Below are positions 1 through 36,985 of a stretch of DNA of 53,293 bases, one piece after another (positions within the stretch are counted from its first letter, which is position 1; the number at the start of each line of letters is the position of its first letter). Position numbers and translations under genes: made by a program. Below the pieces are notes generated by a model. That model saw only the letters and a program-made list of their open reading frames with translations, was not told where the DNA came from and ran no database searches. Source of the stretch: Prorocentrum cordatum (lineage: Eukaryota); assembly GCA_963575745.1 (NCBI GenBank), contig CAUYUJ010000329.1, forward strand, positions 62,001-115,293. The letters run 5' to 3'.

Positions 1-2
1 AA

Positions 3-1820
3 AAGTGGCGCGAGTTAAACGAGACTTTTTGGAGCTACTGGGCCAATGATTTTCCAGCATATGTGAAACAAAGACATTATTGCAGGGGCCTCAATGCCAT
101 GGTGGCATGGAGCGCGAATGACATCGCATGCGCCAACCACGGACAGAACACCGCGGACATGCGTCGACATCAGAATCGTGCACCTACTGACGTATATGAG
201 CTCCAGAAATGGAATGTGAGGGTGGCGTCCCGACGCTCATGCCAGTACACGTACACGTGGACGTATCACGTTTTGTCGATGTGCTGCAGTACTTCCGCTG
301 TCCCACAGTCGTGGGGCCTGGCAAAGCAGCACAATGGGGCGTACATCCGAACTTTGATCACCACACGAACGACCTGATCAATATTATGCAAAATCGTGGT
401 ATCACTGTTCTTCCATCAGATCACTGGGTGGAAGCGTACGATAGGATTACCCCGCAGGCTTGGCATGCAAAACAGAACAACCATAACATGGCGATGTTTA
501 CAACACAGTTCCGCGACGCAGTATGCTATCGTAACTTCTGCGCTTTGATTCAGTCACTGCCCTCTCAACCATATCCATTCAGGGCGCCATTATTGATTCC
601 TGTCACGGATGAGCAGGCCTACACACAGGCCAAAGAGATCATGGCTGCTCTCGACTTCAGAGAAAGGATGACAAACGAATGGAAAAGAGATCACGACGCG
701 ATGACACAGACGGCAAGCGAAATGGCTCATTGTGCGTGGATGGCATCATGTGCCGATGGTACGTTGCCGGCATCACTCCCTGCTGACGCAGGCGACACAA
801 CGGAACCTATTCCTGGAATGCCGAAACGGACACCAGCACCTGATCCTAGCGAGCCAGACAAAGCTATCCCTGAAAATGATCCATGGGGTGTAGCGTACGA
901 CGACTTATTCAACGACTATCAACGACTATCCTGGGGCTTGGGCATCCTGGCATTCAGTCGAGAAACAAGAGCTCCTCCACCCCAAGATCATTAAAACGGT
1001 TGAAGATGCACATGCAGTTACTTGGGTTGTGTTCGAGCAGTTTTTACAACAGATTACTGACTTGGATGGAGATGATAACGCGACCAAGTCACGACTCACT
1101 GCGGAAAACAACAGGTTGACTTCTCACTGTATCGGCCCTGCTGCCGAGAACGAGCGGACCATCATAGCATGCAAAACTTTCTTCAGGCAGAATGCACTAG
1201 ATCGCGTGGCATTGGGATATGATCCTGATGTTCCGACGTCCGTGTGGCGTGCGGCGGCTGATACAGAACAGCCAGCCCCACCAGGCCCATTGCCTGACCC
1301 ACTGCAACCTGGACCGCAATCGATAGACGTGCCACAGCCATCGACTCCTGGACCAACAGCAGACCAGCAGCCAGCAGATCAGCTCCCAAAAGCTGAGGCG
1401 GTACCGATCCCTGACAACGGCACTGACCTAGAGGCCATGGAGCTGGAGGCAACTCCTGCCGAAGAGGAATCTTCTCCACACGAGATGAATTTATTATCAT
1501 GGCAGGACAGCTGCGAGCGTTCCATGTATGAGGACATCAGCCAGGTCGGGATGTTCGATAACGCATGCACTATTCGAGAGTGGAAGCTGCAAGCAGGCAT
1601 CAAGGATGACCATCCGTACGTATGTCCAGTATTGCGGGGTACATCCGCGATCAATGGATTCGCCTGCCTGGACAACAAAGACTGGTACGAGCAACTGTTA
1701 CACGATGATTGTGTGATTGCTCACGCGCCTGATATCGCACAGTCTGGTTGCTTTCCAGAATGGAAGTGGATATCGCTACCAAAATTACGACGACGTACGT
1801 TATGGTCCCGAGTTAATTGA
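3..1820 (+). pseudogene. Frameshifted N-terminal part of the element's large ORF (unknown function)
   Basis: Overlapping + strand ORFs 3-377 (open from the window edge), 209-994, 883-1119 and 1029-1820 tile the region and overlap ORF 1717-5814. Frame switches near 210, 910-1030 and 1740 suggest one ancestral reading frame broken by indels or sequencing errors. Confidence 0.55.
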
Positions 1821-4800
1821 TGATGAATGGCTGGGAGCAAACAAATACATGAGCAAAGACATCGCGACCATGTTACGCCACGAGATTCACTACAAAAAGT
1901 TCTATATAAATCAATTTCACGATAGACGGGTCAACATTTGGACGAAAACAACAGATCGTGAATGGAAGATTCCAAGCAATTGGAAATCCTTTCAGGAAAT
2001 GGTTCAATGGAAATTCAAAGATCGCAATAACCACAACGGGCCGTCCATGAACGCGGTCGTGTCACACTTCAAGAAAGATGGTGGAAATGATGGATATGCC
2101 GATTGGAACGATTATTACCCGATCTTCATCATTCGTGCGTTCCAGAAACATATTGATCCGCAGAAAAATAGAATCGAGATATACGCCAAACCAATCCCCG
2201 AGGGAGGTGACCCCAGCTGTTTCGATTGGAACAGCGTCATTGCCATTCGATGTGTTGGAGGTCACAGTTGTGTTAACCCACTTACCAAACCATGGAATAT
2301 GGGCTGGGAGAGCCTACAATGGACAGACGTGAAATACCTCCACCACGGCACAGCAGCCCGTGCTTGGCGCAACATCTTGAAGACAGGAATCATTCCAGGC
2401 TACGTTGATCCATCTTCTCAGAGAGACAAGCATCATAAACCATCACAGCGCTCGGAGGCATGTTCCAGCACATATTTAGACAATGTCCAGAAGAATCCCC
2501 ACACCTCAGTAGAGTCATATAAGTTCTACAAGAACGAGGTCGAGCTAGTGATCAATATGGAGATCGCCACAAAAGCAGGTTGCAGATTTTGGCTGGGCGC
2601 TCAAGGCGCTATCATGACAGAGGACGTGGTTCCAGCTGCGGCAGTTATTGCAATCCGCCGCCTCAAACCACATCACATGCACGGCCAGCAGATATGGCCA
2701 GACGGCGCCACATGGGATTGCCCGCCATTGGCCGCGAGACCGCCATTGAGCAAGTACGAGATTTGCGCTTATCTTCCTGGAGAGTTCATCGAAGACCCTC
2801 CTGGGATTGCACCTGCTGGCACGGATCAGAACATGGAGCAGCCAAGGACAACGTCAGCATCAGCACCTTCGGCTCAGCTGGGGGCAACCCCTGCTAGCCG
2901 TATATCTGGAGCCGATGCCTTGGATGAGCAAATGGTCCGTGTTATGATTCAGGACACCAATCACAAAGCAGATGATAAAGAATGGTTAATTGCCCTGTCA
3001 TACTGCCGAGAGGCTCTTCGACCTATTACATCAAAGATTACACAAAAAGATTGGGATCGTCGCCCTGCATTTAATGATGTTCGCATGGGGGACTTCATTA
3101 TCATTAAGAATTGGGGATCTATCAAATGTTATCATTATGCCAATCACTACCCCAAGGGCAATCACAATACCAAGGTCCCCACGAATAAGGCCCACATATA
3201 TGGTCCAATCATTCATTTCGGAGTCTTTGACAAGTTCTTCGCAGTACAGATACCTATTTTCAACTACGGTTTACGATGGGTAAACATATGGTACAATGAC
3301 AAGAGCATGCCTCTGAAGGGCGTTGTCTTTGCATTACCAATTCGTATCGACGAACATGCCATTGACCCGACATATATGAATACTGTCTTGGAGGGACCAT
3401 CCTCATGCCGTGACCAAATACTCCAGCACAAAATTGATGGCAGTCTACCATATCTTGGTATGCCGAGCATTTATAGGCCACGCATTCCACGTACACTGAC
3501 CAGACAGCCCGCTCCTCGGACACCCGATCCCGAAGAGCTGGTGGCCACACCTGCCGGAGATACCGCTCCTACGGACGATGGGCCTCAACAAACTGCAGGC
3601 TCATCTGATGAACCTTTGGTTACCGTTATCGTGGATATATCAAACATATCACTCACCGCTGAGGAAAAAGCGGTAAATGACAATATGAGAGCAGATCTAC
3701 CAGCAGAGATCCGAGCAGACGAGCATGTTGATGCGAGCATACTCGACAACGTTATTGACCCGCCAGAGGACTTCCTCAACCACCCAGACTACGACCCAGA
3801 GGAGGATTCAAGGTGTATTAAACAGTCATACGACCGCCGCATATACCGCTGGACGTCGGAGTTGTTGGTGGAGTCACCTATGATAAAGATGAACCAAATC
3901 ATTGAGGTACACACTGGCGCGGACAGAATTGTGGTTGATAAAACACAATTGCACTTACGATTTGAGATTCAGTTCGGATCCAAAGCATGGAATGCAGAGA
4001 CATACTATCTGAATTATGATCATACCCACAAATGGGCACGTGACTTGCCAATTTGCAGTGCAGACCACTCTTTCAAAAAGTTGGTACACTACCTGGACCC
4101 AGAGACCATCGAGGAGTCGACTACAGGCGTCTTTCGATGGATCTCCAAAGTAGATCAAAACATATTGATGGACAGTATTGCGGAGCTCCGTGACTTCACA
4201 AAAGATGCCATCCATCAGAAACATCCTGCACTCCAAACGTTGCGTGATCTATTTAAACATTGCATCGACACATTCGGTAATCCAGACTTCCCCGTATGGA
4301 AGGAGCTGGTGGAAACACCTGCCGCGCCACGTGACCCAGGCGCGGAGCAGGATATTCCCCAGGACCCAGGCAGCGTTGCATCCGCAGCCCCTGATCAAGA
4401 AACCATGGTACGGATCATAGCCGAGCAGACGGGAGTCAACCGCGAAGAGGGCGACAACGAGTCTGCCTTGCAGGAGAAGGCTCGCCGTCTTCGTACTGAA
4501 AACGTATGCCATGGTGATACCGAGGATGCGGACAACGACGCAACAGAGCACATAGGACTGTCTGGGGAAAGATTGTCTAGGATCGAGATCGAGGGATTGA
4601 GTAGATCAATCGCTTCCCGACCGAACGCCGAGATCAACCGCGAAGCCATGGATCAGATCGGCCGCAGTCTTGCTCGTGGTCAGGATACTCGCTGGGGATC
4701 TCGTGAGCACCTCACGACGGAGGGAGCCCCAGAAACGATCCTGCATGATATCGCGCGATGTCGGAATTGTGGTCGAGACTTATCCCTTGGGATCGTCACA

Positions 4801-5814
4801 GGTGATGGTGCCCTTTGTGACATCTGTTGGCAGTGCACCGTGGCCGTAGGTGCGACGGGTAAAAGTACCGCCGTCCAGAGCGACCTAGCATACCTCCACA
4901 AGTTGACCAACTGGATCAAGATGACGCTCTCCCAGGATGGTATCACGAGGTACATGAGAGACGGAGCGCAAGTCATTATGACGGGCGCGCGCTCATTCCC
5001 AGGCAATGAGAAAGATTCGCTGAGGAGAATGGCTAATGTGTCTAGGAAGAGGTATCAGAAGTGGGTCGAATCTGGTCGCCCTCCTGCACACGAGTGCAGA
5101 CTGATGGGCGAGGCTGGTGACGACAGACCTCTGCACTACCCATATGCCAATCTCGTTCAGCGCTTTCTCAACGATTTGAAGTTCCACCACCAACTGACAG
5201 GCGCTCGCGTGAACGTGGGCAAGAAGGCCTGGAACGTGGACGACATGCGTGATGCATGCACGATCCTCGATGCCAGGATCAGGACTGGACAAGCTGGTCG
5301 GAAGAAATGGTGGCTGAACGAGGGCAGACTCGACAAGCAAATGCGGCAGGCTCGCGGACTTGTCACGATTGCCCTCCCTAGAAGGGATGGCACCCGTGAG
5401 AAAGTCACGCAGCGCAAGCTTGCTGCGATTGCTAACGAGTTGTTGGGCTCCCTCGATCCGTCACATACCGACCAGAGGGGGGGTGATTCAGGGATGAGAA
5501 CCGATCCGATCGAACCTGATACACACTCCCATCAGTCTGATGATGCCATGGAGCCGCGCCATCCACCGCCGCCGCCGCGCCCTGCCCCTGGCGATGCTGC
5601 ACAGTCCAGCGCCTCTGGCGCGGCGGACCACATGCCCGCGGGGCCGCGCGCCAAGAGAGCGCGTACCACAGATTACGCCGCCTACTGGCGCGACGACCTT
5701 GAGGACAGTCATTGGGGTCTCAGGTATTGGAGCTACTACATCAACTGTTGGATCTACATCGCGATGAACAACGACGAGTTCGTGTACATCCACGACATCC
5801 AGTACAACGATTAG
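1717..5814 (+). CDS. kptA: Large protein with an N-proximal Tpt1/KptA-like RNA 2'-phosphotransferase (ADP-ribosyltransferase fold) domain (about 1849-2660) and a CxxC..CxxC zinc finger (about 4759-4836)
   Basis: Tpt1 motifs in the correct order: SKDIATMLRH (SKxLSxxLRH), DGYADW (DGW), KNRIE (KxRF), IRCVGGHS (IRAxQGHS), LHHGTAARAWRNILKTGIIP (LYHGT..W..I...GL.P), ELVINMEIATKAGCRFWLGAQGAIMTEDVVP (IDx..A...G..F..S.NGV.LT..IP). Reading continues plausibly past TAG 5812-5814 to a stop at 5923-5925. Confidence 0.8.
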   Translation: MLTRLISHSLVAFQNGSGYRYQNYDDVRYGPELIDDEWLGANKYMSKDIATMLRHEIHYKKFYINQFHDRRVNIWTKTTDREWKIPSNWKSFQEMVQWKFKDRNNHNGPSMNAVVSHFKKDGGNDGYADWNDYYPIFIIRAFQKHIDPQKNRIEIYAKPIPEGGDPSCFDWNSVIAIRCVGGHSCVNPLTKPWNMGWESLQWTDVKYLHHGTAARAWRNILKTGIIPGYVDPSSQRDKHHKPSQRSEACSSTYLDNVQKNPHTSVESYKFYKNEVELVINMEIATKAGCRFWLGAQGAIMTEDVVPAAAVIAIRRLKPHHMHGQQIWPDGATWDCPPLAARPPLSKYEICAYLPGEFIEDPPGIAPAGTDQNMEQPRTTSASAPSAQLGATPASRISGADALDEQMVRVMIQDTNHKADDKEWLIALSYCREALRPITSKITQKDWDRRPAFNDVRMGDFIIIKNWGSIKCYHYANHYPKGNHNTKVPTNKAHIYGPIIHFGVFDKFFAVQIPIFNYGLRWVNIWYNDKSMPLKGVVFALPIRIDEHAIDPTYMNTVLEGPSSCRDQILQHKIDGSLPYLGMPSIYRPRIPRTLTRQPAPRTPDPEELVATPAGDTAPTDDGPQQTAGSSDEPLVTVIVDISNISLTAEEKAVNDNMRADLPAEIRADEHVDASILDNVIDPPEDFLNHPDYDPEEDSRCIKQSYDRRIYRWTSELLVESPMIKMNQIIEVHTGADRIVVDKTQLHLRFEIQFGSKAWNAETYYLNYDHTHKWARDLPICSADHSFKKLVHYLDPETIEESTTGVFRWISKVDQNILMDSIAELRDFTKDAIHQKHPALQTLRDLFKHCIDTFGNPDFPVWKELVETPAAPRDPGAEQDIPQDPGSVASAAPDQETMVRIIAEQTGVNREEGDNESALQEKARRLRTENVCHGDTEDADNDATEHIGLSGERLSRIEIEGLSRSIASRPNAEINREAMDQIGRSLARGQDTRWGSREHLTTEGAPETILHDIARCRNCGRDLSLGIVTGDGALCDICWQCTVAVGATGKSTAVQSDLAYLHKLTNWIKMTLSQDGITRYMRDGAQVIMTGARSFPGNEKDSLRRMANVSRKRYQKWVESGRPPAHECRLMGEAGDDRPLHYPYANLVQRFLNDLKFHHQLTGARVNVGKKAWNVDDMRDACTILDARIRTGQAGRKKWWLNEGRLDKQMRQARGLVTIALPRRDGTREKVTQRKLAAIANELLGSLDPSHTDQRGGDSGMRTDPIEPDTHSHQSDDAMEPRHPPPPPRPAPGDAAQSSASGAADHMPAGPRAKRARTTDYAAYWRDDLEDSHWGLRYWSYYINCWIYIAMNNDEFVYIHDIQYND

Positions 5815-6050
5815 TTTCGTCGCTGGACCCCGAGGACATATTGGGAGACGTTCACGACGAGCTACGCGACGTACAATGGTCAGAGGATGTGGGACCGCAG
5901 GTTCTACAAGAACGGCAACACGTAGGGGGTCGGCTGCAAGGCCCACCGCTCAAAGGCTTGAACTTCATTATACTTCAAGTTCGCCTTGAGCGGTGGCTAT
6001 TATATACTTTTAGGCCACTTCACTATACAACACAAGTGGCCACACATACA

Positions 6051-6134
6051 AACATCTTTTGCGATAACCAAGGCAGCGTCCTAAGGAGCAAGGCCAACGG
6101 GAGTCGCCATATAGAATTCACATACATGCAACTT
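6051..6134 (+). pseudogene. Possible relic of a Ty1/copia RNase H C-terminal segment
   Basis: NIFCDNQGSVLRSKANGSRHIEFTY resembles copia IxCDNQSAI...RTKHIDIRY with a shorter spacer; short and isolated. Confidence 0.4.
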
Positions 6135-6597
6135 TCGTGTTTGTCAACACGACCTTTCGTCTGGCCAGACATTTGTTTTTACACATAATTGCGTTCCATA
6201 GCACGATCGTGTTCATCAACACGATCTCAGCGTGCATATTCGTTATAATATATCTACATTGCGTTGAGAATACTCTGACAGCTGGTGGCAACACCTGCCT
6301 CGCAAAGGCGAGGCAGATTACAAGTTGCTCTATTGCTCAGATCTTCTTTCTCCGCCCACCCTTGTCCCATTCTTCTCCGCCCTCGAGTGCCGAAGCGTTT
6401 TGGGGGGCGCGCCGAGGGGGCACCAAAGTGTGCTTGGCGAAGAAATGGGGACCCAGGGTGTTCCTTCTCACTTTACTTTGCAGCTGTGGCTATACTGACT
6501 TTAAGCTCAGCTGCCTGCAGACCTAAGGATTAAAGGAGTAAAAGGGTGACGGATTCTTTTCCTCTGTTCCCGAGTCCTACCCTCACGGGCGGGATTC

Positions 6598-6610
6598 AGG
6601 ACGGGGGGTG
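6598..6610 (+). other. Polypurine tract (plus-strand primer) candidate
   Basis: AGGACGGGGGGTG directly abuts the TG start of the putative 3' LTR. Confidence 0.55.
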
Positions 6611-6793
6611 TGAATAGAACCCGTGTAATACCCTCATATATACTCCTTATCCTTACCTCTCCTGCGCCTGGCCGTTTTGGCTCAGGTATTGGGACATATC
6701 GATCAGACCTTTGATCGTGCAGGAGGGAAAGACATCCATCTATCCCTCCTTCCCTCTACCAACGGATCAGGGGTTCTGTATCCTTGTACTTCA
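6611..6793 (+). repeat. Putative 3' LTR (183 bp)
   Basis: Begins TGAATAGAACCC and ends GGGTTCTGTATCCTTGTACTTCA (TGAA/TTCA termini plus an AGAACCC/GGGTTCT inverted match). Contains TATATA at 6637-6642 and an SL-like motif at 6671-6686. Composition changes right after 6793. Confidence 0.6.
6671..6686 (+). promoter_or_regulatory. Dinoflagellate spliced-leader (DinoSL)-like sequence inside the LTR
   Basis: GCCGTTTTGGCTCAGG vs the 3' part of DinoSL GCCATTTTGGCTCAAG: 14/16 identical. Confidence 0.7.
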
Positions 6794-7994
6794 ACCCCAT
6801 GCACAGCTGCTACGCACTGCTTGGCTCGCAGTCGTTCGGCTTCCCCCCTGCGCTGTTGGGTGGACTGGCGGGCGTTGAAATCGCCGCGGAGTGGTTCAGC
6901 CCTTCGCAGCAGCTGCAGCACCCCAGGCTCACCTACCAGCTATCGGCAGGTTGCGTTGCACCACGTTCCGCGACAGCTCAGCCCCCCTGGCTAGCACACG
7001 TCGTCTAGGGCGTTTGGGGCCTGGCGCTCCGCCAGCGACTCGCTCCTCGGGCCTCGCGCCTGCCCCCACTCAGTACGACGGACTCGGTTGCTCAGGTACA
7101 CGTCTTGTCACTGTGTGGGCCGTGCCTCATGGCAGGCATCGAATTCCCCGACATTTTGTCCTGTGCATGTGCTCGAGCTTCCCAGGATGCCCCCCGCCGT
7201 CAGTCCCCCCACGCCTCGCGGCTGCTTTGTGAGTGGGCCGGCCGGCAAGTGCGCCTCTTGTAGCTAATTAGGCTTGCCCGTTGGCCCAGACGCCCTGCCC
7301 GCCGCCTGCCTCTTCGCTCGTGGCCGCGACCGAAAAAGTATCCCCGCGGTGTCCGTGTACTGGAGTTCTCCCCGCGGTGTCCGTGTACGTCTGTCGCCAC
7401 TGCCGGTGTGCTGACTGCGGGCACGCGCTCCCTATTCAGGGCTTCTGGTGCGCGACTTCGCTGGCGCCACCTGTTGCACCCGTCTGGCCCTGGGTCACGG
7501 CTTGGTTCCCCGAGCTTCCAACGGTCGCTTTCGTGGTGCCCCCGCGCCATTTTGGCCGCGCTGCAGCTTGACTGCTCTTCGCACTTGCGCGTGCTGCTGC
7601 TGTTGGACCCTTTGAGTTGCGGCCACCCTGGTACCTCGCAGCTTGCCGATGCTCATGCCCACCCTGGGCACCCAATTCGACCTCCGAAAGTCGGTTCACT
7701 TGGCTGCGGCCACCCTGGTACCAGTAGTCCGGGTGCTTGCGCCCTTGCAACTAATTCCCGTTCGCAGCTTTCCCCGGTCGCCAGTTACCCTGGCCGCCTG
7801 CTGCCACCGACGTTTTGAATGCAACCCGCCAGCACTGGTATCCAGCCTACCGCCAGCCTTTTCCATTCGCCGGCCCGCCGCCGAGGTGCTGCATGAGGCC
7901 CCGGCCCACCGGTTTAGTTTAATTCGTCTTTGCGCGCCCCGCTCTGACTGGACTCGCCGCTGGCGCGCTCGCCTGCGGTCGCTGACAAACTGCG

Positions 7995-9115
7995 TCCCCG
8001 CCAGTGCCGGCGCGGCCCGCCGTAGCACGCTCGGCGTTCGATTTGTTTCGCGCGTGAGCATGGTCGAGTCGGGCAGCGCAACGTCGAGCAGTACGATCTC
8101 GAGTGCGACATAGGCGAGCAGCGCCGTCCGGCCAGCGCCACGGTGAACAGTGTCACGACGCTGACGGAGACGACCAGGTCTTACCATACCACGTTGGCCT
8201 CGAGCACCACGGTCACGGCCAGTGCAGCCCCGAGCAGTGCGACGTCCAGAGCCACTTGCACGGTGAGCTCCACGACGGCAATGAGCAGCAGCGTGAGTGG
8301 TTGAAACGAGAAGCCCAATGTCGGACAGTACGTCTCGTGGGCGACACTATCGGGCAGCAACACGCCGGCCAGCATTACGACGAGCAACGGCGCGACATCG
8401 ACGGATACGACAAGATCCTACAATACCACGTTGACCGAGACGAGACCAGGACGATACCTTAGACGGCTTGCACGAACGGCACCAGCAGCACGATGGCCAA
8501 CTCGAAGGTGGCCAGCAGCACCAATGCATCCTTCACCAACTTGACTTCCAGTGCTACGTTGTCCAGCAGTACGTTTCAGACGACCTGCAGGGCGACCTCC
8601 GGCCGCACGGTCACGACCAGGGCGGTCTCGAGCAGCGCGACGTCCACGGCCACTTTCACGGTGGGCTCCACGACGACATCGAGCATAGTACGAGCGGCAC
8701 CAGCAGCACGGCGGCCTGCTCGAGCGTGACCAACAGCACGACTGCACCGTCCACCCCTTCAGTGAATAGGTGTCTAGCAGTACGCTTCAGACGACCAGCA
8801 GCACGACCTCGAGCAGCAGGGCCCCCACCAGACTGCCCCGAGGAGCGCCACCGCCACGGCCACCTCCACGGTGAACTCCACGACGGTACTGAGCAGCAGC
8901 TCGAGCGCGGTCGTGGCGAGCAGCGCAACGTCGAGCAATACGACTCGAGTGCGACACAGTCGAGCAGCACCACGCCGTCCAGCACTACGGTGAGCAGCGG
9001 CACGACGCTGACGGATGCGGCAGGGTCATACAATACCACGCTGCCCTGGACGAGGTCTTCGGCGGCTAGTGCCAGCGGCTCCAACAGCACGACGGCCAAC
9101 TCGAGGGTGACCTGC
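7995..9115. repeat. Degenerate internally repeated block (Ser/Thr-rich in + frames); its left 58 bp recur at about 10649-10706
   Basis: Recurring TCGAGCAGC/CACGACG/GCCACTT..ACGGTG units near 8060-8290, 8600-8730 and 8850-9110. CCCCGCCAGTG..GGCGCGGCCCGCC.TAGCACGCTCGGC.TTCGA occurs at both 7995 and 10649. Stops interrupt all frames. Confidence 0.55.
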
Positions 9116-15151: not shown

Positions 15152-15631
15152 TCAGGCACCGAAGGGCGACGGGTTGAGAGTGCGGGCGGCAGCCGAGAGC
15201 GCCGAGAGACCTGCCGCTGTCGCCGCCGCTCGCGCCTGGGCCTCTTGCGCGGCAGCCTGCTGCTGGTTGTAGTGGTCCCTCAGCATGGCCTCCACCTCTG
15301 CGATGGTCGCCAGGCCTGGGGTCTCGATCCACTCCCAGTCCCAGGTTTCGACGACCTGGCTGTCGATGACGTCCAGCGACTTGAGCTTCCAGACGAACGG
15401 GTAGAGCATGCCGTTGGGCATCTTCCACTCGCCAGGGCATGTGGAAGGCCACCACTTTTTGAACTCACGCGTGGCGGCCGTGTATTGGGAGCCCTGCCAT
15501 GCCGAACCAGCATACGTGTCTCCTGAGAGGCCGAAGAGCTCCCGCGTGTTGGGCGACGCCCTGCTGGCCTCGGCCGCGCCCGTCTCCGCCGCGGCCGCTG
15601 CGGAACCGCCCGCGGGAGGCATGGGCACCAT
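15152..15631 (-). CDS. Hypothetical LINE cargo protein (about 159 aa; Trp-rich globular core, Ala/Gln C-terminal helix)
   Basis: ORF 15152-15781 with a likely ATG at 15631; strong GC3 bias; sequence KKWWPSTCPGEWKMPNGMLYPFVWKLK..WDWEWIETPG is not low complexity. Confidence 0.55.
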   Translation of the reverse strand: MVPMPPAGGSAAAAAETGAAEASRASPNTRELFGLSGDTYAGSAWQGSQYTAATREFKKWWPSTCPGEWKMPNGMLYPFVWKLKSLDVIDSQVVETWDWEWIETPGLATIAEVEAMLRDHYNQQQAAAQEAQARAAATAAGLSALSAAARTLNPSPFGA

Positions 15632-15729
15632 GGCGGCGTGGGGCGCGCTGAGAGAAGGGGGGAGTGCATAGGGAACAAAAAGAAGTAGCCCATAAGCCAA
15701 CGGCCAAATATGAGTGAAACCTAGCTGGC

Positions 15730-16152
15730 CTATGCTTGCATCTGTGTGAGGAGGACCCTCCTGACGGGCCGATTGATGCATGCTTGGCCTGGTGCGGAGT
15801 CTATAGGGATGAGGATGTTACCGCTACGCATGTTGACCCGCAGAGAAAGGCCGGTGCGGTAGGGTATGCCCGTGCCAAATAGGATGGGCCGTGCATCCAT
15901 CTCCTGAAGAATGGGGAGGTGAAAAAAGCGCGGCCTTTCCGCAGTGGATGGCAGCCTGGTCTCCTGCCCATGGAATTGCTCCATTAGGGGCCCTACATTG
16001 ATGGGCAATGGGGACCAAAGCGGAATGTGGCCTGTCGTTATTACTACCATCCACTGCACTACTGTAGGCGGTGGTGGCACTGACTCAGTGGGGGCGCAGC
16101 GGTAGTCGCCGTGCTCGAACTGCGGCAGGTGCTGCGCCTCTGGGGTCGGCAT
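15730..16152 (-). CDS. Hypothetical LINE cargo protein (140 aa)
   Basis: ATG-initiated ORF starting 11 nt after the stop of the upstream ORF; hydrophobic beta-rich composition; no recognised family. Confidence 0.4.
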   Translation of the reverse strand: MPTPEAQHLPQFEHGDYRCAPTESVPPPPTVVQWMVVITTGHIPLWSPLPINVGPLMEQFHGQETRLPSTAERPRFFHLPILQEMDARPILFGTGIPYRTGLSLRVNMRSGNILIPIDSAPGQACINRPVRRVLLTQMQA

Positions 16153-16163
16153 GGCCTGAGGGA

Positions 16164-16856
16164 TTAGGGTTCGGGGAGACGGAGGATACGAGCGAGGTGG
16201 GACAACGGGAGGCAGAATGGCCGAACCATGATCATGGCCTGGAAATCTATAAGGATGGGGCTGCCAGCCGCTGCATCCTGCAAAAGACGATGAGGGCTGA
16301 GGGAGGACTGCTCCCAGGCCCCCGATTGGAGCAGGTCCAGAAAAAGCTGGTCCGGCACGTAAACAGAAACTAGCCCTATGGTGGGTGAGAAACGCGCATC
16401 ATAGGGGCCGTCCCCCGCAGCACATTGAGGGTAAATGTGGAGTAGGTTAGGGGAGTTGGCCTCGCGCCAGCGCCCATGCCAGCGCTCGAGTGTGCGATTA
16501 ACGGCCGTGGGCAAATCTAGGTGAAGCACAGGGCCCACGAAGGCGCGCGCGTGTGGCCATGCGGGCGGCCCGCTCTCGAGCTGCCATGTGGCTTGCCACT
16601 GGGGTACCGCATTATGCTGGTACACCGTGGCGGGAGACAGAATGAGTGCGCGGCGCCTCGCGCCGCCGCTGAGAAAGCGGTAGACTTGCTGGTGAGCCAA
16701 AAGAAACCGCTCAGCCAAATGCTTCCATAAGGAAGCCAAACGAGAGGCTGGTGGCGAGATGCTGCGCGGCTCTAATTGTTGCCCCGGGTACGCCTCAGCA
16801 GCGGGCATGTCCTCGTCTGCACCGGCGCTGCCCAGGATACTGGGCTCGCTCCTCAT
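16164..16856 (-). CDS. Hypothetical LINE cargo protein (230 aa)
   Basis: ATG overlaps the upstream stop as ATGA (16853-16856); globular-looking sequence; no recognised family. Confidence 0.45.
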   Translation of the reverse strand: MRSEPSILGSAGADEDMPAAEAYPGQQLEPRSISPPASRLASLWKHLAERFLLAHQQVYRFLSGGARRRALILSPATVYQHNAVPQWQATWQLESGPPAWPHARAFVGPVLHLDLPTAVNRTLERWHGRWREANSPNLLHIYPQCAAGDGPYDARFSPTIGLVSVYVPDQLFLDLLQSGAWEQSSLSPHRLLQDAAAGSPILIDFQAMIMVRPFCLPLSHLARILRLPEP

Positions 16857-18240
16857 GGCCTGAAGGGGATGAGGCGGAAAAGGGAGCTGGTAAGAGGAAA
16901 GAAGGAGAGGTTAGGCTGAGGCTGAGGGTTAGCTGCCTGGCAAATGCTAACGCCTGGCAGCATCACCTCCTTCATGAGGTTTACGCGGCCTCCTGGGCGA
17001 AAGACGCTGACCGCAATGCGAGAGGCTTTCGCCTTCTCGCAACTGCAGCCTGAGGCGCTCCCTGTGTATCCTGTCGATACGGAGCTGGTCCTGCCTATGC
17101 TCCTCTTTGAGCTGGGCAATTCTATTCTCGTGCTCCTTGAGAAATGAGCTGCGCTGCTCGTCCGCTGCTGCGGCTGACGCAGCTGCAGCTGCGACTGTAG
17201 GCGGCAGGCGCGGAGCTACCTGGGCAGCATGGTGAGACTTGCGAGCCTTATGGCGCCTTGGGGGAGGAGAGGCTGGAGGCGAGGCCGGGCCGTGGGAGTC
17301 CTGCGGGCTGCTTTGAACCTCTACTGGTTCTTGGCGCTGTGGCGCAGGCTGCTCGTCCGAGGCTGCATCAGACGCTTTGGCAGGCGAGCGTGAGCGCTGA
17401 GCTGCATGGGCCGCGCGGTGCGCCTTGGCCTTGCGAGCCCGATGGTGCCCAGGGGGAGGAGAGGCTGGAGGAGACGGCGGGCCGAGGGACTCCTGCGGGC
17501 TGCTTTGTGCCTCAGCAGGTTCCCTGCGTATCTGCGCTGGCTGCTTGAGCGCGCTTTTGCGCGGCTCGGTGCGTAAGCGCGAATTATAAGCCACCTTGGG
17601 GGGCTCGGCCATGAACTCGTCCGCAAATTGAGACCTGTTTGCGCTTGCGAGTTGCAGAGGCGCGGGGCGCAGCGGACTGTTCCGCCGGCTCTGGAGAGTC
17701 ATGCGGAGGAAATGGTGAGGAGGCAGAGGAATATGAGGCGTCGTCCACCTGATCCAGCCTTCTAGGCGATGCTGGGGGACTAGAAGCCCTGCTCGGCTGG
17801 CTCCTGTGCGGCGCAGCTTTTCGAGACTGTTTGCGAGGCTCGCGCAGGGGTGGAGGCGAGGTGCACGCTGAGAGGGGTGGAGAAAAAGGAGAGGCTGCCT
17901 GGCCTATCCAGCCTTCCGGAATGGCTGCTTTGGCAGGCACCCCGGGATGATCTGGGGGCGGCAAGGGAGGCAAGGCGGGCGGAGGTGGCGGAGGATGAAA
18001 AGTGGCCCCGTAAATGTGCCTGCCTCGACCCATGGGGGGGCCGCTGAAATCGCCAGGCGGCCGCGGGGGATCTGAGGCTGGTGGGGTGCTGGACAGAGAG
18101 CGCTGCACCGCTTCGGCTACCTGAGCGAATTGGGCAGGCGAAAGTAGGGGTGGAGGAGCTGAGGCGGACCGAAATTGGCCCGGTGGGGGATGCTTTGGCC
18201 TGGCTTCACGCGGCGCCAGCACCCATGGCCGTCTGGACAT
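16853..18240 (-). pseudogene. Frameshifted Pro/Ser-rich plus coiled-coil ORF downstream of the DNMT
   Basis: ORFs 17584-18240, 16947-17702 and 16853-17119 overlap in series. The ATG lies 10 nt after the DNMT stop. Internal duplicated peptide QSSPQ(E/D)S.GP.SPPASPPP..H.ARK. Confidence 0.45.
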
Positions 18241-18250
18241 GAGACGCCAG

Positions 18251-19978
18251 CTAAGTGTCGAAGATGTCGGCGTTGAAGTCCTGCGGGGCGGGCGAAGCAG
18301 GGTGCCGCATGTGAGAGAGGGAAATGCCCGTGAGCGGGACGGGTCGTGCCGCTTGCCGGGAACGCTCGGCCCTGATTTGTCTGGCCCGTCCCCTATTGCA
18401 CTGGATGCGCCTTTTCTGATCCAGAGTTAGGGAGGGCGGGGGTGGCGGCGGAGGGGGGGTGGAGGGAAAAATGGGGGCTGCGCCCAAAAAGTGCATGGCC
18501 TCTTGTTCCGCTTCCGAGTCCTGATCGGCGGGATCAGGCTGCTCGTGAGCGTCTAAGGGGAGGTCGCTATGGCGCCGCGGCTCGCGGGGCCTGGAGAGAG
18601 CCAAAAGCCTGCGGAAGCGGTCCAGCTCCCCATCTACTTTGGCACGGGTGCGAGGGGCGGAGGGATCAACAAAGTCGGGGCCTAGCCAAAAGTCGCTGGT
18701 CATGGAAGCGGAGAAGCGGATGAGGGGAGCCAGAACCGAGGGGTCCGACTGGGGAAGAGGATCCTGTGGGTCGTCAACAAATGGTAAAATGACGTCCTGG
18801 TATATAGCCTGGGCGAGACATTCGTAAAGGGCAGAAGGATAGGTCTTTTTGTCAGCAGTGAAAAAGCGGTCATTCTCGTCCTTACCTAGAAGTGTGCGAT
18901 GTGACCCCCGTGGGTGCGTGCACTTGGTCCCTTGGGGACGGTTAGTAAGGAGCTCTGGGAGCGAGGGAAGGCGGAGCGATAGCAAGCGCGTGGGGGCTTT
19001 GCCGAATTCGTTAGGAGGGCGGCAAGACGGCTGGAACATGCACTGGTCGATGTCCGTGGTGCGGACCGCCGGTGCAGCAGCCAGGGCCATTAAAGGCCTC
19101 CATATCCAGCTAGGCTGCGCCCTGGGTTCCCAGTGGGCAGGGCATGGATGTTCCATCCATGCCGAGGTACCCATTTCCAAATGAGCGGCAAAGAGGAGAA
19201 TCAATGAAGCGAGTAGCAAGTTGGCTATCTGCAATTGGCGGGATTGCTTGGGCGTTGCGTTGGGGATGCCCCAGTAGTGCTCGGTAGTGCGTAGCGGCGG
19301 TGGTCCGTTGGGCTTCCAGCGGGCCGCGCAAAAGGTTTCGCACGGCGGGCCCCCACCTGAAACAACCACTCTGCCGGCATAAATATGTTGTTGCCAGAGC
19401 TTAATGGTCTCCGACTTGGTGAGATCGCCTGAGTCGGGGTCGATAGCAATATCGACCGACAGTATATGTACCTCTATCGAGGGGTCAGGCGTGAATGATT
19501 CCAGGTGATGCTGGATATCCCCTTCGCGCCTGCGGCCAGAGAAAAGATTGAGGATGAAAATTTCCTTGCGCCTTATACGGGCTGGAATTTCTCTGGTCGC
19601 TAGACCAGAATAATCCTTCGGTTGAAATGGCCATTCAGGCAGCGCAGGAAGAGGAGGAGGTAGTGGCGGAGGAACATCGGCGGGAAAAAGTAAAGAGACG
19701 GCATCAGAGTCCAGCGCGTAATCTGTAACCGCCATTATGGCGCGAGCGTCCGCTTGCGACAAGTGTTTGGCAAAGTCACGAAAGTGCTGTGTGGTAGCAC
19801 GCTTGGCACGATGTGCCGGTAATGCCACACGCCAGCGACCTACGCCTGACTTAACTTGTAGCTTGGCATTTTCGCAGCGTTGCATAGCAAGCGCTGCGAT
19901 TTGCTCTTGGGGAAGGCGTTGGGAATGGCACAGGAGGTAGAGAGCACATATGAAGGAGTCGAAACAGAGGTGCTGCAA
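18251..19978 (-). CDS. C5 cytosine DNA methyltransferase-like domain; C-terminus of LINE ORF2 (separated by a frameshift near 19980)
   Basis: Ordered DNMT motifs: ILNLFSGRRREGD (I), LSVDI (II), GDLT (III), GGGPPCETF (IV, catalytic PC, about 19340), WMEHP (VI), DQCMF..KAPTRLL (VIII), KTYPSAL (X). Confidence 0.85.
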   Translation of the reverse strand: MQHLCFDSFICALYLLCHSQRLPQEQIAALAMQRCENAKLQVKSGVGRWRVALPAHRAKRATTQHFRDFAKHLSQADARAIMAVTDYALDSDAVSLLFPADVPPPLPPPLPALPEWPFQPKDYSGLATREIPARIRRKEIFILNLFSGRRREGDIQHHLESFTPDPSIEVHILSVDIAIDPDSGDLTKSETIKLWQQHIYAGRVVVSGGGPPCETFCAARWKPNGPPPLRTTEHYWGIPNATPKQSRQLQIANLLLASLILLFAAHLEMGTSAWMEHPCPAHWEPRAQPSWIWRPLMALAAAPAVRTTDIDQCMFQPSCRPPNEFGKAPTRLLSLRLPSLPELLTNRPQGTKCTHPRGSHRTLLGKDENDRFFTADKKTYPSALYECLAQAIYQDVILPFVDDPQDPLPQSDPSVLAPLIRFSASMTSDFWLGPDFVDPSAPRTRAKVDGELDRFRRLLALSRPREPRRHSDLPLDAHEQPDPADQDSEAEQEAMHFLGAAPIFPSTPPPPPPPPSLTLDQKRRIQCNRGRARQIRAERSRQAARPVPLTGISLSHMRHPASPAPQDFNADIFDT

Positions 19979-22787
19979 GAGACTGGCGCGTGAGCCAAAG
20001 GGGAGACTGGCAGGCCGGGCGCACCTGGGTGTCCGGTACTAGGCCTTTGACCCTGTGGGACAAGGTCCAGTGCACCTGGGCAACGTGTTGTTTTAGCCCC
20101 CGAAATTTTAGAAATGTGCGCGAGCACCATGGGCAAGTGAGCACCGCTGGGTAGTGCGCTGCCAGGCGTTGCTGCTCGATCGGGTGCTGTACATGGTCCG
20201 TCGGCAGGGGGATCCCACATGGGACAGTAATGGCAAAAAAGTGCTTGGCAGCTGCCTCGGCGAGTGCTGCGCGAGCGAAATGCTGTGCTCCCGCTGTAAG
20301 GGCATTGCGAATTCGACGCTTCCATCCTGTGTGGGATTGGAGAGCGAGGGCCTCCCACTGGTCCAGGTGCGACATTGGCGGGGGCATTTGTGCTAGATTG
20401 GCAGAAAATTCGCCCAGCCACTGTAGGTCCTTCTGCACCAGGGCAAGCCATGAGTCTGGGACGTCTGCGGCTAATTTGGCCAGCAGGGAGGTGAGGTGCG
20501 GAGGTCCCGTGCGGAGGAGCCTGCCAAAGAGGCGCAGACGCATTGCACTAAAGATATGCGGCAGAGGGGGTCTGCAGACCTTGGCCAGGACGAATGAGTC
20601 CCGCTCTGCCGTGCTGTCGCACCTTGGGAGGTGGAGCAAGCGCCTGTGCATTCTCATGAACTCTCCTTGTAAGGAGACTATTTGCGGTCCAGTGAGCAAT
20701 GGCCAAACCGCGGCATTAAAAAGGCGGGAGGAGAGGATGAGGGAGTCCAGTAAATGCAGGTGCTCATGAAGCCAGGTACTAGAAGAGTGGCGCAAGAATT
20801 GACGGGCAAGATTGCGCCAGCTGGGGGCCGCCTCCGATCGCCTGTGGGCGAGTTCGGGGCCTATGCTGCCCTTTTCGTCCAGGTGCGTACCTAGATATGT
20901 GTATATTCTGGCGAAGTGGAGGGAAAAAGGCGAATGCCCGAGAGTAGGTGAGACTAGCATTTGCCCATTGAGCCCTTGGGGGTCCCAGAGCTTGCGACGA
21001 AGTGATATGGAAGCTTCCCCTCTAAACTGAAAAAGGCACATGGTTTTGTTGACTTGAAAATTTAGCTTGATGCCTGAGAGCGCGTAGGCTTCGACTACGA
21101 TGGCCATTAGCACGGGCATGGCGTCAAATAGCTCCTTAGTGGGACCAAGGAAGGCATAGGCACCATCATCGAAAAAGCATGAGTCCAGATATTGGTGCAC
21201 TTCTGTCTCTGCGGAGGCTATATTGTCCTTGTTATGAGCGAAAAAAGAGCGCGGGGCATCCTTGTCCACCTGGACATTGAGAATAAGGTGTGCAAGCGGT
21301 GATTCGGTGAGCTGCTTGACAGCTTCGTTATTGGCTCGGGCCATGAGGAAGTTGAAAAGAACGTCTCCGAGCTGCTGTCCTGGGATGGTGCCACGTAATG
21401 TGAGTGCTACCCCTGAGGCTCCTGGGTAGAAGGCCCAGGTATGCTCGCATGCAGCCGAGATTTGTGCGTGGAGATGCGGGGGGAGACCAGCCTCCTGCAG
21501 TATAGGAGGGGCAGAGAGCAAATGTCTTATTAGTTCTTCACCTGTCTCCTGGGGGAGATCAAGGGAAGCAACTAAGTAGTAAAGGTCAGCTTGTTGCGAG
21601 TCGCAGTAAAATATGAGCTGTCGGAGGGCCCTGTAAAAGGCTGAGACAGCATCTATAAATATGTATGCTGAGGAAATGCGCTGGCTATTTGCGTAGGCTT
21701 GGTGCGCTAAGACCGCGAGCGTGGCGAAATCTGTGCCCCGTCCAGCGATGCCGCCAGACTGTGAGGCGCCTGCCATGGGAGGAAGATATTCCACCAGTTC
21801 TTTGCGCAATAGGGCACGATGCCGCTTGGAGAAGTGGGGGGAGGCCATTACCGAGCGGGAGTTGGCCATTATGGCCGGATTGCCTTTACCTTTAAAAATG
21901 TCGAAGTTGTACCCTCCCCGCCAAGCCAGCGGTTCCTCAAGGCGCACCTGCGCCTTGAGGTGGACCGGGTAGTACTGCTTCGCAAGTAGACGGTGAAACG
22001 ACTTGACAAAGGCTCCTTTGAAGCCATCCACGCTGGCTGCCGAGTCTGGGGTCCTGGCATAGGCGCGCTCGATTTGCGCTAGGGAGAAGAGGGAGTATGG
22101 AGGGGGAACATCCACAGTAAGGTCAGCGGGCAAATACGATGCACTAGCGTCGTAGGCCTTGGCATGTTTGAGCGGGATAACTGCACCATGCTCCTGTCGA
22201 GCAAAATGGGATAGCCACGTGTCGGCCGCTTGGGTGGCGTCTACCACGAAGGTGCCCGCTGCCGTGGAGAGGATAGGTAGGGGAGAGGGGCGTAGCTTCT
22301 TTTTGGAACCCACGCCCAACGTGCGTAAGCGCGCAAAGGCAGTGCATTGTTGTGAGGTCTGCCATGCCTCGTGAACTTCGGCGGCAATGCCTTGTAGGTG
22401 AAAAGCGGCATCCAAGTCGACGGAGCAACGTACTGCCTGTGTGAATTGAGCTAGGACGATGGCCCTGATGGCGCTTGCGCGCGCGCGTAATTGAATGGCA
22501 GCCGCGTGTGCGGTACCTATGGTAGGCGCAGAGCAAGCATGCGGGAAGCGTGTTTTAGCAACGCGTGTAGGCGAGGATGCTAAAAACTGATGCAAGCAGG
22601 CCATGCGAATTCTGGGCTTCCATTTAATGGAGGCATTAGGGTCAGCCATGCTGGCACGCATGCTGCGGAGAGCAGCGCCGAGCTCCGCTAGTTTGGCAAA
22701 AGTATTATTAATTGCGGGCATCAGCGAGAGCTCTTCGTGATGTCGGAAGGCCGCTTTGGGACGTGTAAATGCTTGCCTGGATCGCAC
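19851..22787 (-). CDS. LINE reverse transcriptase plus C2H2 zinc finger (ORF2 middle)
   Basis: AASVDG, W.GG..FDIFKGKG...NSRSV, SQSGG, FIDAVSAFY, GTIPGQQLGDVLF, FFDD (about 21165-21176), GIKLN...KT, YTYLG; CPWC..F....GLKQHVAQVH. In frame with the upstream ORF across a single TAG at 22839-22841. Confidence 0.92.
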   Translation of the reverse strand: MRSRQAFTRPKAAFRHHEELSLMPAINNTFAKLAELGAALRSMRASMADPNASIKWKPRIRMACLHQFLASSPTRVAKTRFPHACSAPTIGTAHAAAIQLRARASAIRAIVLAQFTQAVRCSVDLDAAFHLQGIAAEVHEAWQTSQQCTAFARLRTLGVGSKKKLRPSPLPILSTAAGTFVVDATQAADTWLSHFARQEHGAVIPLKHAKAYDASASYLPADLTVDVPPPYSLFSLAQIERAYARTPDSAASVDGFKGAFVKSFHRLLAKQYYPVHLKAQVRLEEPLAWRGGYNFDIFKGKGNPAIMANSRSVMASPHFSKRHRALLRKELVEYLPPMAGASQSGGIAGRGTDFATLAVLAHQAYANSQRISSAYIFIDAVSAFYRALRQLIFYCDSQQADLYYLVASLDLPQETGEELIRHLLSAPPILQEAGLPPHLHAQISAACEHTWAFYPGASGVALTLRGTIPGQQLGDVLFNFLMARANNEAVKQLTESPLAHLILNVQVDKDAPRSFFAHNKDNIASAETEVHQYLDSCFFDDGAYAFLGPTKELFDAMPVLMAIVVEAYALSGIKLNFQVNKTMCLFQFRGEASISLRRKLWDPQGLNGQMLVSPTLGHSPFSLHFARIYTYLGTHLDEKGSIGPELAHRRSEAAPSWRNLARQFLRHSSSTWLHEHLHLLDSLILSSRLFNAAVWPLLTGPQIVSLQGEFMRMHRRLLHLPRCDSTAERDSFVLAKVCRPPLPHIFSAMRLRLFGRLLRTGPPHLTSLLAKLAADVPDSWLALVQKDLQWLGEFSANLAQMPPPMSHLDQWEALALQSHTGWKRRIRNALTAGAQHFARAALAEAAAKHFFAITVPCGIPLPTDHVQHPIEQQRLAAHYPAVLTCPWCSRTFLKFRGLKQHVAQVHWTLSHRVKGLVPDTQVRPACQSPLWLTRQSLAAPLFRLLHMCSLPPVPFPTPSPRANRSACYATLRKCQATS

Positions 22788-22838
22788 ATATCGCTTCCAA
22801 GCCGCGATAGCTGCCAGCAGGAAAAGGTTGCTTGCTTC

Positions 22839-24669: not shown

Positions 24670-24708
<39 letters not shown>

Positions 24709-24901
24709 CGGAATCAAAAGCCGCGTAGGGAGTATCGAAGACAAAGCTGTGCCAGGTGGGGATGGAGGAGGAGTGGAGGGCTGGAAAAATGACATCGAAG
24801 TCCCTGACCAACTGTATGGAGGTAGCCGTAAGCACCGGTAGCATCCACCCCATGGGCGGAAGCGGGCTGCGGCGTATACCTTGCCGCCCCCCCAGGTTCA
24901 C
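22839..24901 (-). CDS. LINE ORF2 N-terminus: RNase H followed by AP endonuclease; frameshifted by a (TA)n expansion at 24671-24705
   Basis: RNase H: IYTDAS, AKAEFDA, FHSDN, WQHVHGH..DPLNEMVD. APE: ASANILSL, IGMQETR, LMDSNA, TW, RRDYIAI, LDH. Confidence 0.85.
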
Positions 24902-27468: not shown

Positions 27469-27471
27469 CCG

Positions 27472-27482
27472 CTCGAGCCAAA
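27472..27482 (-). promoter_or_regulatory. DinoSL relic at the LINE 5' end
   Basis: TTTGGCTCGAG vs TTTGGCTCAAG (10/11), at the element boundary. Confidence 0.6.
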
Positions 27483-27520
27483 CCTAGGGAGGGAGGGAGG
27501 GAGGAGGGAGGGGGGGCGGG

Positions 27521-29003: not shown

Positions 29004-29028
29004 TGAGTAATTGTTGAGTAATTGTGGA

Positions 29029-29029
<1 letters not shown>

Positions 29030-29060
<31 letters not shown>

Positions 29061-29245
29061 GAGGAGGAGGAGGAGGAGGAGGAGGAGGAGGAGGAGGAGG
29101 AGGAGGAGGAGGAGGAGGAGGACGACGACGACGATGACGACGACGACGACGACGAGGGGACGAGGAGGACGCTGAGGACGAAGAGGAGGACGAGGACGAG
29201 ATGCGACCGAGGACGAGGACGATGACGAGGACGAGGACGAGGATT

Positions 29246-29277
<32 letters not shown>

Positions 29278-29327
29278 AAGGAGGAGGAGGAGGAGGAGGA
29301 GGAGAGGAGGAGGAGGGAGGGGGAGGA

Positions 29328-29359
<32 letters not shown>

Positions 29360-30387: not shown

Positions 30388-30441
<54 letters not shown>

Positions 30442-33848: not shown

Positions 33849-36985
<3,137 letters not shown>

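Follow-up and report, generated by a model that had tools for sequence, protein, structure and literature searches.

Introduction

Tpt1/KptA enzymes are otherwise known as small housekeeping or repair proteins. The family tetrad is Arg-His-Arg-Arg, and as described for TkoTpt1, where it comprises Arg17, His18, Arg65 and Arg118, the same four residues serve both the removal of 2'-phosphates and the capping of 5'-phosphates with ADP-ribose, while His98-Gly99-Thr100 contacts NAD+ (PMC12678800). For Tpt1 in selfish agents, two reports turned up. Some picorna-like viruses are described as carrying a PTS_2-RNA domain in their replicase polyprotein, between the VPgs (PMC11316551), and in some jumbo phages, KptA has been proposed to clear 2'-phosphates left by host RNases (PMC7824862). 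Here, we describe a Tpt1/KptA-like domain within a giant open reading frame (ORF) of a repeated element in Prorocentrum cordatum. The DNA analysed, referred to below as the window, is a stretch of 53,293 nucleotides (nt) from contig CAUYUJ010000329.1 of GenBank assembly GCA_963575745.1 (positions 62,001 to 115,293, forward strand). On balance, we favour the reading that window positions 1 to ~6900 belong to a selfish repeat, present in many diverged copies in a GC-rich marine alga, and represent one decayed copy of it. On this reading, the repeat encodes a single giant ORF with a divergent Tpt1/KptA as its one recognisable module.

The picorna-like viruses share with this locus a selfish agent whose Tpt1 domain sits inside a very long polyprotein. 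Compared by description, however, they are RNA genomes with helicase, protease and RNA-dependent RNA polymerase (RdRp), whereas the present element is many-copy genomic DNA without these (PMC11316551). In the jumbo phages, too, a mobile agent has its own Tpt1, but KptA is described there as encoded on its own, by a small gene next to those for RNA ligase and kinase/phosphatase (PMC7824862). Pfam and NCBIfam scans of the giant ORF detected no ligase, kinase, 2H or macro domain. Full-text literature searches returned, in the text they covered, no link of PF01885, Tpt1 or KptA to a eukaryotic transposable element; a known enzyme family is found here in a setting that this literature does not report.

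Long terminal repeat (LTR) retrotransposons with an extra ORF after pol, of the env-like or ORF3 types, offer a third comparison. The locus resembles them in that a long ORF is followed by a purine-rich tract and by a terminal segment of excess abundance, and differs in that an LTR pair, a primer-binding site, gag and pol were not found in the part of the element that lies in the window. To our knowledge, the extra ORFs of LTR retrotransposons are far smaller than ~2000 codons, and we know of none with a Tpt1 domain.

A divergent Tpt1/KptA homologue in a giant ORF

A preliminary description of this DNA, made from the sequence alone, had proposed an LTR element with a Tpt1/KptA-like domain in a giant, intronless ORF unrelated to pol. 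The two features at the centre of that proposal are:

1717-5814, + strand: the ORF of the preliminary description, as far as it is still open in the studied copy; 1365 codons with a TTG start
1849-2622, + strand: Tpt1/KptA-like domain, residues 45-302 of this ORF, identified by PF01885, profile matches to Protein Data Bank (PDB) sequences and fold searches

The ORF is open on the + strand and intronless as proposed, and no pol domain was matched in it. A hidden Markov model search with PF01885 (PTS_2-RNA), for which the curated gathering cut-off is 26 bits, bears out the domain. The whole ORF scores 27.1 bits (E 5.2e-6), with residues 45-302 corresponding to profile positions 6-176 of 177, and the isolated domain (1837-2775) scores 33 bits (E 7.6e-8).

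The domain belongs to a family. An exhaustive HMMER search with ORF residues 1-1200 gave 108 proteins at E ≤ 0.001; 66 of these have E-values of 1e-10 or better, and 17 of 1e-30 or better. Short peptides make up almost the whole set and jointly tile residues 23-1200 of the part searched. For the domain itself, we built an alignment of 48 rows (A2), consisting of the studied domain and 47 relatives, most of them short fragments. Eight of these rows, the studied domain included, match PF01885 at E ≤ 0.01 (best 2.3e-13); other families appear among the rows only through one chimeric gene model and one zinc-ribbon match. Compared with PDB sequences, the A2 profile reached E ≤ 1 with five, every one of them a Tpt1 (E 0.0046-0.36).

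Structure prediction leads to the same family, most clearly for the C-terminal half. The AlphaFold2 model of the domain, built from 48 sequences, has a mean predicted local distance difference test score (pLDDT) of 62, with values mostly of 75-94 in the C-terminal NAD lobe over model residues ~150-190 and 230-300. In a Foldseek search against the PDB, ranks 1-22 are all Tpt1/KptA (E from 7.4e-6), followed by DarT and toxin-type ADP-ribosyltransferases. VIA-align, which is independent of Foldseek and was run against 48,161 representative chains, places mouse TRPT1 first (Z 10.7, root-mean-square deviation 2.6 Å over 114 residues), ahead of T. kodakarensis KptA (Z 8.0), Scabin (6.7) and yeast Tpt1 (6.6). 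The sequence identity of the domain to the solved structures is 16-23%.

Several results weigh against this assignment. In the RNA lobe, pLDDT is below 50 for most of residues 1-111, so that the predicted structure agrees with the Tpt1 fold in its NAD lobe but is of little help for the N-terminal part, where LRH and the Pfam positions from 6 onward are matched and ~76 residues are inserted. When residues 1-420 were compared pairwise with PDB sequences by phmmer, Tpt1 was absent at E ≤ 10 and the matches obtained were chance ones (E ≥ 0.4), and NCBIfam gave nothing for the window ORF. The PF01885 match might on these grounds be a product of chance with no Tpt1 fold behind it, the more so as the whole ORF exceeds the cut-off by just 1.1 bits and the model averages so low a score. 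Against this stand relatives that match the same family far more strongly, a set of PDB profile matches made up wholly of Tpt1, two fold searches that both put Tpt1 first, and an order of motifs and an R178-H210 spacing that agree with Tpt1. We consider a chance match very improbable. Judged from profiles and model, the domain is a genuine but divergent Tpt1/KptA homologue with an ADP-ribosyltransferase-type NAD lobe, while its RNA lobe is predicted by sequence only.

The Arg-His-Arg-Arg tetrad

The residues expected of a Tpt1 active site can be placed in the domain as follows:

1876-1881, + strand: R54-H55 of LRH, tetrad residues 1 and 2; placed by motif, LRH being conserved in relatives
2248-2250, + strand: R178 of AIRCVGGHS, tetrad residue 3; profile vlAiRavGGhs aligned to lIRAnQGHS of TRPT1
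2344-2352, + strand: H210-G211-T212, NAD-binding HGT motif; paired with HGT in the profile alignment
2449-2451, + strand: R245 of QRSEA, tetrad residue 4; profile aRsea aligned to GRTHIHL of human TRPT1

The motifs named in the preliminary description lie in the order and at the exact coordinates given there, namely LRH at 1873-1881 (within MLRH at 1870-1881), IRCVGGHS at 2245-2268 (within AIRCVGGHS at 2242-2268) and HHGT at 2341-2352. KNR is present as well, within DPQKNRIEIY, and the fourth arginine follows in QRSEA-CSS, which starts at 2446. The A2 profile pairs LRH with the LRH of human TRPT1, in a stretch of the alignment that is not significant (-2.1 bits). Most relatives that cover the R245 site keep R[ST]E. 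R178 and H210 are 32 residues apart, compared with 33 for R65 and H98 of TkoTpt1 (PMC12678800). The distance from RH to R178 exceeds the canonical one by ~76 residues and that from HGT to R245 by ~15. By motif and profile alignment, the tetrad R54, H55, R178 and R245 is present. The catalytic motifs persist in relatives that are merely 25-40% identical, which argues, at the level of sequence, for selection on catalysis in the family.

Compared with the cellular enzymes (mouse/human TRPT1, 7yw2 and 7yw3; T. kodakarensis KptA, 9ld3), the domain has the same succession of LRH, xIRxxxGHS, HGT, an Arg-led strand and a C-terminal G-x-x-F-W/Y...G-A/V-x-x-T strand pair. The Arg-His-Arg-Arg tetrad is shared, and the modelled NAD lobe superposes on 7yw2 and 9ld3 at the Z scores given above. 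The differences concern context and detail. Cellular Tpt1 proteins are stand-alone chains of ~180-250 residues, whereas the domain described here comprises ~260 residues inside a protein of ~2000 or more. The cellular enzymes have no counterpart to the ~76 and ~15 additional residues described above, and where they have QGHS, the domain has GGHS. In TkoTpt1, Lys63 is described two positions before the third arginine, where the present domain has Ala (PMC12678800).

A diverged many-copy repeat with a common 3' boundary

The giant ORF lies in a sequence that recurs in many diverged copies. The parts of the repeat that fall in the window are:

1-6899, + strand: repeated element, cut by the left window edge, with its 3' boundary near 6900
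5923-6546, + strand: non-coding 3' region common to copies (contig pieces 5728-6109, 6080-6304 and 6393-6606)
6525-6546, + strand: purine-rich tract (19 of 22 purines, longest cluster) followed by TG; candidate polypurine tract
6547-6899, + strand: terminal over-abundant segment, candidate LTR or other high-copy end; boundaries approximate, from depth bins

Logan contigs of four public sequencing runs (X1-X4) were aligned to positions 1-9000 at ≥80% likeness. At 80-100% likeness, the four runs contributed 4014, 3653, 1067 and 845 contigs. In X1, 506 contigs are at least 99% alike, 944 fall between 95 and 99%, 1390 between 90 and 95%, and 1174 below 90%. The diverged contigs form more than 100 layers and include copies with insertions and deletions. 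The preliminary description had left room for a single-copy ORF, in which case it would have been a host retrogene; instead, the ORF is part of a diverged multi-copy repeat in every run.

Depth along the sequence marks where the repeat ends. The following sums of contig depth are not copy numbers and pool all organisms of a run. In X1, summed word depth is 875-2896 over 1-6000, 758 over 6001-6300, 2788 over 6301-6600 and 6525 over 6601-6900, and falls to 104 over 6901-7200 and to 34-327 beyond. X2 follows the same course, with 42-659 over 1-6000, then 115, 1146 and 3653 in the three bins up to 6900 and 9.8 over 6901-7200. Depth thus drops 60- to 370-fold after ~6900, and the final 300-600 nt exceed the body of the repeat 3- to 9-fold in abundance; even so summed, the sharp edge and this excess are both clear. 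Base composition also differs along the window. GC content is 0.47-0.575 with an AT skew of +0.12 to +0.15 over 1-6000, and GC content is 0.53-0.74 in nearly every bin beyond.

The sequence is therefore a diverged many-copy repeat with a common boundary at ~6900. It is probably mobile. What tells against this last step is that mobility is read from copy number, divergence and composition alone, because no reverse transcriptase, integrase, transposase or capsid domain was found.

Within the 3' region, the segment 6110-6206 is variable and is replaced by 21-23 nt in other copies. Between 5815 and 6950, 27 windows of 13 nt contain at least 11 purines, compared with 6.95 ± 5.4 in mononucleotide shuffles. 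Because the purine-rich tract and the TG behind it sit where depth begins to rise, the segment from 6547 to ~6899 could be an LTR of ~350 nt, with a candidate junction at 6546/6547. Searches for other signals gave nothing that defines the region. Rfam had no match at gathering score in the whole window and weak chance matches alone in 5800-7300, a tRNA scan of the window found no tRNA genes, sites for bacterial-type promoters and terminators in 5800-7200 were no more frequent than in shuffles, and a short-repeat search of 5800-7100 found nothing that defines termini.

A possible relic of a spliced leader in the high-copy terminal segment was rejected. At 6672-6686 (+ strand), CCGTTTTGGCTCAGG is followed by T (GT at 6686-6687) and has 2 mismatches to a 15-mer of the dinoflagellate spliced leader. 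The match is not significant, since 5 of 100 shuffles gave at least as many matches at ≤3 mismatches.

The ancestral ORF and the decay of the studied copy

When the studied copy is compared with other copies and relatives, the ORF proves longer than first described, and interrupted:

3-5922, + strand: ancestral giant ORF, broken in the studied copy; ~1970 codons within the window and at least ~70 further codons upstream
206-208, + strand: frame break 1 (frame 3 to frame 2); one base fewer than in some of the other copies
911-930, + strand: frame break 2 (frame 2 to frame 3); 10-nt tandem duplication
1781-1786, + strand: frame break 3 (frame 3 to frame 1), within a run of A; found by tblastn of P0110, P0046 and P0013
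2460-2461, + strand: copy-specific two-codon deletion directly after RSEA; the motif of relatives is longer and other copies diverge behind 2461
5812-5814, + strand: private premature stop (TAG); position 5813 is G (TGG) in all contigs that cover it

The preliminary description had placed the element at 1717-5925. Its ORF is open over 1717-5814, but the upstream continuation through three frame breaks and the private nature of the nonsense stop were missed. The first break joins a frame-3 segment (3-206) to a frame-2 ORF (209-994). Contigs of all four runs have one base inserted behind 206 or 208, and L002, a relative from metagenome data, reads through the same point. The 10-nt tandem duplication accounts for the second switch, from frame 2 to frame 3. 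At the third, the P0046, P0013 and P0110 peptides run uninterrupted from the frame of ORF 1029-1820 into that of 1717-5814. Downstream, 6, 3, 7 and 9 contigs of runs X1-X4 read G at 5813. Because the stop at 5812-5814 is private to the studied copy, the ancestral ORF is taken to end at the next in-frame stop, 5920-5922.

To the left, a search of metagenome contigs with a further alignment (A4) gave just two, both short: L001, of 1551 nt, and L002, of 1008 nt. L002 has ~70 homologous codons left of window position 1. With the frame breaks read through, the stop private and ~70 codons added by L002, the reconstructed ancestral ORF began before the first base of the window, ended at 5922 and had ~2040 codons or more. 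Word-indexed protein searches matched nothing, neither for residues 1-420 against proteins of 750-2389 residues nor for ORF 209-991 against longer proteins.

The two in-frame deletions lie in the Tpt1 domain. In the preliminary description, the second NAD-lobe motif (RSEACSS) had been taken as diverged. However, relatives read R[ST]EAF[FY]SS and other copies carry extra letters behind 2461, so RSEACSS is better explained as this conserved motif minus two codons lost in the studied copy, which leaves the strand after R245 short by two residues. A second two-codon deletion lies at ~2525, where other copies have a 6-nt insertion. Among the 40 of 1947 differing places that were listed, 18 are window-private substitutions in 1717-5814, falling 6, 8 and 4 times on codon positions 1, 2 and 3; for so small a sample, this spread fits neutral decay of the studied copy. 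With its frame broken at three points, a stop codon of its own and two in-frame deletions, the copy in the window looks dead and is probably inactive.

What kind of element is it?

The preliminary description is thus partly supported. The Tpt1 domain, the tetrad and the repeat status hold, while the LTR reading is unproven. In the 6.9 kb of the window that belong to the element, we found no LTR pair, gag or pol, and the 5' end of the element lies outside the window. The polypurine tract and LTR named earlier at ~5915-5925 come down to a run of six purines (AGGGGG), and no 13-nt window there reaches 11 purines.

An LTR-type retroelement is nevertheless the leading candidate for the way in which the repeat moves, although we judge it less likely than not. 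The Tpt1 ORF would then be an accessory ORF downstream of gag-pol; of the other parts of such an element, the 3' LTR would fall inside the window, and the 5' LTR with all that follows as far as pol would lie to the left of it. The excess of the terminal 300-600 nt is what solo LTRs would give, the edge near 6900 is sharp, and the tract at 6525-6546 with its TG sits in a suitable place. An upstream ORF may exist, because L001, a distant relative, has another ORF of at least 82 codons that stops ~90 nt ahead of the first conserved coding sequence; its 82 residues, however, have no family or ESM Atlas match. The coding strand is A-rich, as is common in retroelements. On the other side, no part of 1-7200 recurs in the 53-kb window, and 5800-7200 has no second copy. 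Pfam matches to gag, protease, reverse transcriptase, RNase H or integrase are absent from the ORFs of the element, from L001 and L002 and from the relatives scanned. The upstream DNA of L001 and L002 shares only chance matches of 8-13 nt with the window tail, and in relatives the coding sequence continues for at least ~70 codons left of the window with nothing pol-like in it. A long interspersed nuclear element (LINE)-type organisation was also considered and is unlikely, with no reverse transcriptase match and a depth that is roughly flat over 1-6000 instead of rising steadily toward the 3' end.

The architecture of the protein brings a virus to mind. At least five conserved blocks are joined by low-complexity linkers in the manner of a polyprotein, they lack cellular homologues, and PTS_2-RNA is reported from polyproteins of some picorna-like viruses (PMC11316551). 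The relatives, moreover, are labelled as coming from very different algae (nine fragments from Pyramimonas sp. in EukProt, one NCBI protein from Prorocentrum cordatum / Polarella glacialis). The ORF might accordingly come from an algal virus, either an RNA virus or a large DNA virus, whose polyprotein gene was integrated and later amplified. However, the ORF gave no match to RdRp, helicase, protease or capsid families, and a scan of IMG/VR with P0001 gave 2 pattern matches, of which 0 were confirmed. Many diverged copies with a defined, over-represented end look more like a transposable element, and we regard an endogenised virus gene as unlikely.

Equally unlikely, in our view, is that the repeat represents a so far undescribed kind of autonomous agent, mobile or virus-like, in marine algae. 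Such an agent would encode a polyprotein of ~2000 or more residues without recognisable reverse transcriptase, integrase or transposase, and would bring its own NAD+-dependent RNA 2'-phosphotransferase. If this were true, its life cycle would run through RNA joined by a tRNA-ligase-type reaction, for example circularised or re-ligated RNA, and the 2'-phosphate left by ligation would have to go before the RNA is copied or translated.

The sequence might, finally, not be mobile at all but a host multigene or retrogene family whose giant Tpt1 protein serves the cell. In favour of this, the scans recognised no mobility enzyme, the best structural matches are to eukaryotic TRPT1, and one P. cordatum gene model (P0073) contains a piece of the family. 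That model, however, is chimeric, joining WD40 and PDEase exons to an N-lobe piece and to nothing else of the family. A composition unlike that of the flanks, the more than 100 layers of diverged contigs with indel copies among them, and four disabling changes in the studied copy also speak against a host gene family, which we judge improbable. A decayed selfish repeat remains the reading that we prefer.

Proposed role of the Tpt1 module

The polyprotein made by intact copies of the selfish repeat would act, through its Tpt1 module and with NAD+, on a phosphate in RNA or DNA of the element itself or of the host. The module may remove a 2'-phosphate that stems from RNA ligation, where it stays behind at the junction, or from cleavage by metal-independent RNases. 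Alternatively, it may ADP-ribosylate a 5'-phosphate end. By either route, the RNA or complementary DNA of the element would stay usable as a template, or would be shielded from host nucleases. If the domain is active in the family, it offers a tractable example of how a parasite of genomes can use NAD+ to manipulate the phosphate ends of RNA or DNA. As a conserved feature, it would also mark an abundant repeat family of large algal genomes that otherwise resists annotation.

Other conserved blocks and relatives of the ORF

Besides the Tpt1 domain, three segments of the ORF stand out:

209-700, + strand: N-terminal conserved block, with 34 invariant columns (e.g. GPG, W-H-x-K-x-N) across relatives that are 39-75% identical
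2929-3591, + strand: strand-rich conserved domain B, residues 405-625, after the Tpt1 domain via a Pro/Ala/Ser/Thr linker; many fragment matches
4759-4830, + strand: CxxC...CxxC segment, possible zinc ribbon; the sole match is a sub-threshold Zn_ribbon_Nudix (E 0.89)

The N-terminal block has no Pfam or NCBIfam match, and its AlphaFold2 model from 6 sequences, with a pLDDT of 38, is unusable. Three of its five relatives are labelled Pyramimonas, one is from ENA and one from JGI. Domain B, for which Pfam has no match either, follows Tpt1 in P0117 as it does here, while in P0078 a B-like part precedes Tpt1. A search of the ESM Atlas with residues 400-1365 gave no usable match, and no other Pfam or NCBIfam domain was found in the remaining ~1700 codons, whose conserved blocks are separated by low-complexity linkers.

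The sources of 20 relatives are 12 ENA contigs, six EukProt entries of Pyramimonas sp. CCMP1952 and two NCBI entries. Since close (62-72%) and distant (42-46%) relatives both carry the Pyramimonas label, this one data set appears, from sequence identity, to hold several subfamilies. A search of JGI metagenome contigs with P0001 gave 47 pattern matches, of which 0 were confirmed. In the NCBI entry P0073 (Prorocentrum cordatum / Polarella glacialis), the N-lobe piece is fused to WD40 and PDEase; it is probably a mis-joined gene model that has absorbed a repeat fragment.

Other features of the window

On the - strand, ~12 kb at 15155-27483 consist of near-continuous long ORFs (861, 624, 995 and 595 residues, and more). 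Apart from an Exo_endo_phos endonuclease (E ~1e-6) and a weakly scoring RNase H (E 0.004), nothing was matched in them, reverse transcriptase included; the region may represent a large element, LINE-like or other, most of whose content is unrecognised.

In the GC-rich flank of the repeat, contigs of X2-X4 return from position 8685 to 8052, and 8193-8687 is skipped in contigs of X1, X3 and X4 (in X1 also 8193-8473), which indicates copy-number variation of a repeat of ~500-630 nt at 8052-8687.

The remainder of the window is rich in simple and tandem repeats. Very long trinucleotide arrays with extreme GC skew are of the GTA/GTC type (~3 kb, 33710-37000) or of the GAG/GGA type and its complements (29000-29700, 30300-30900, 39150-39670 and 47940-48090). 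A segment of ~300 nt is duplicated at 27511-27819 and 28262-28561 (742 nt apart, 97% identity), and an inverted copy lies 15-16 kb away at 43785-44077 (88% identity). Tandem units of 53 nt occur at 27947-28152 and 28689-28841, and arrays of ~100-nt and ~82-nt units at 44714-45490 and at 50390-50720 and 52419-52750, respectively.

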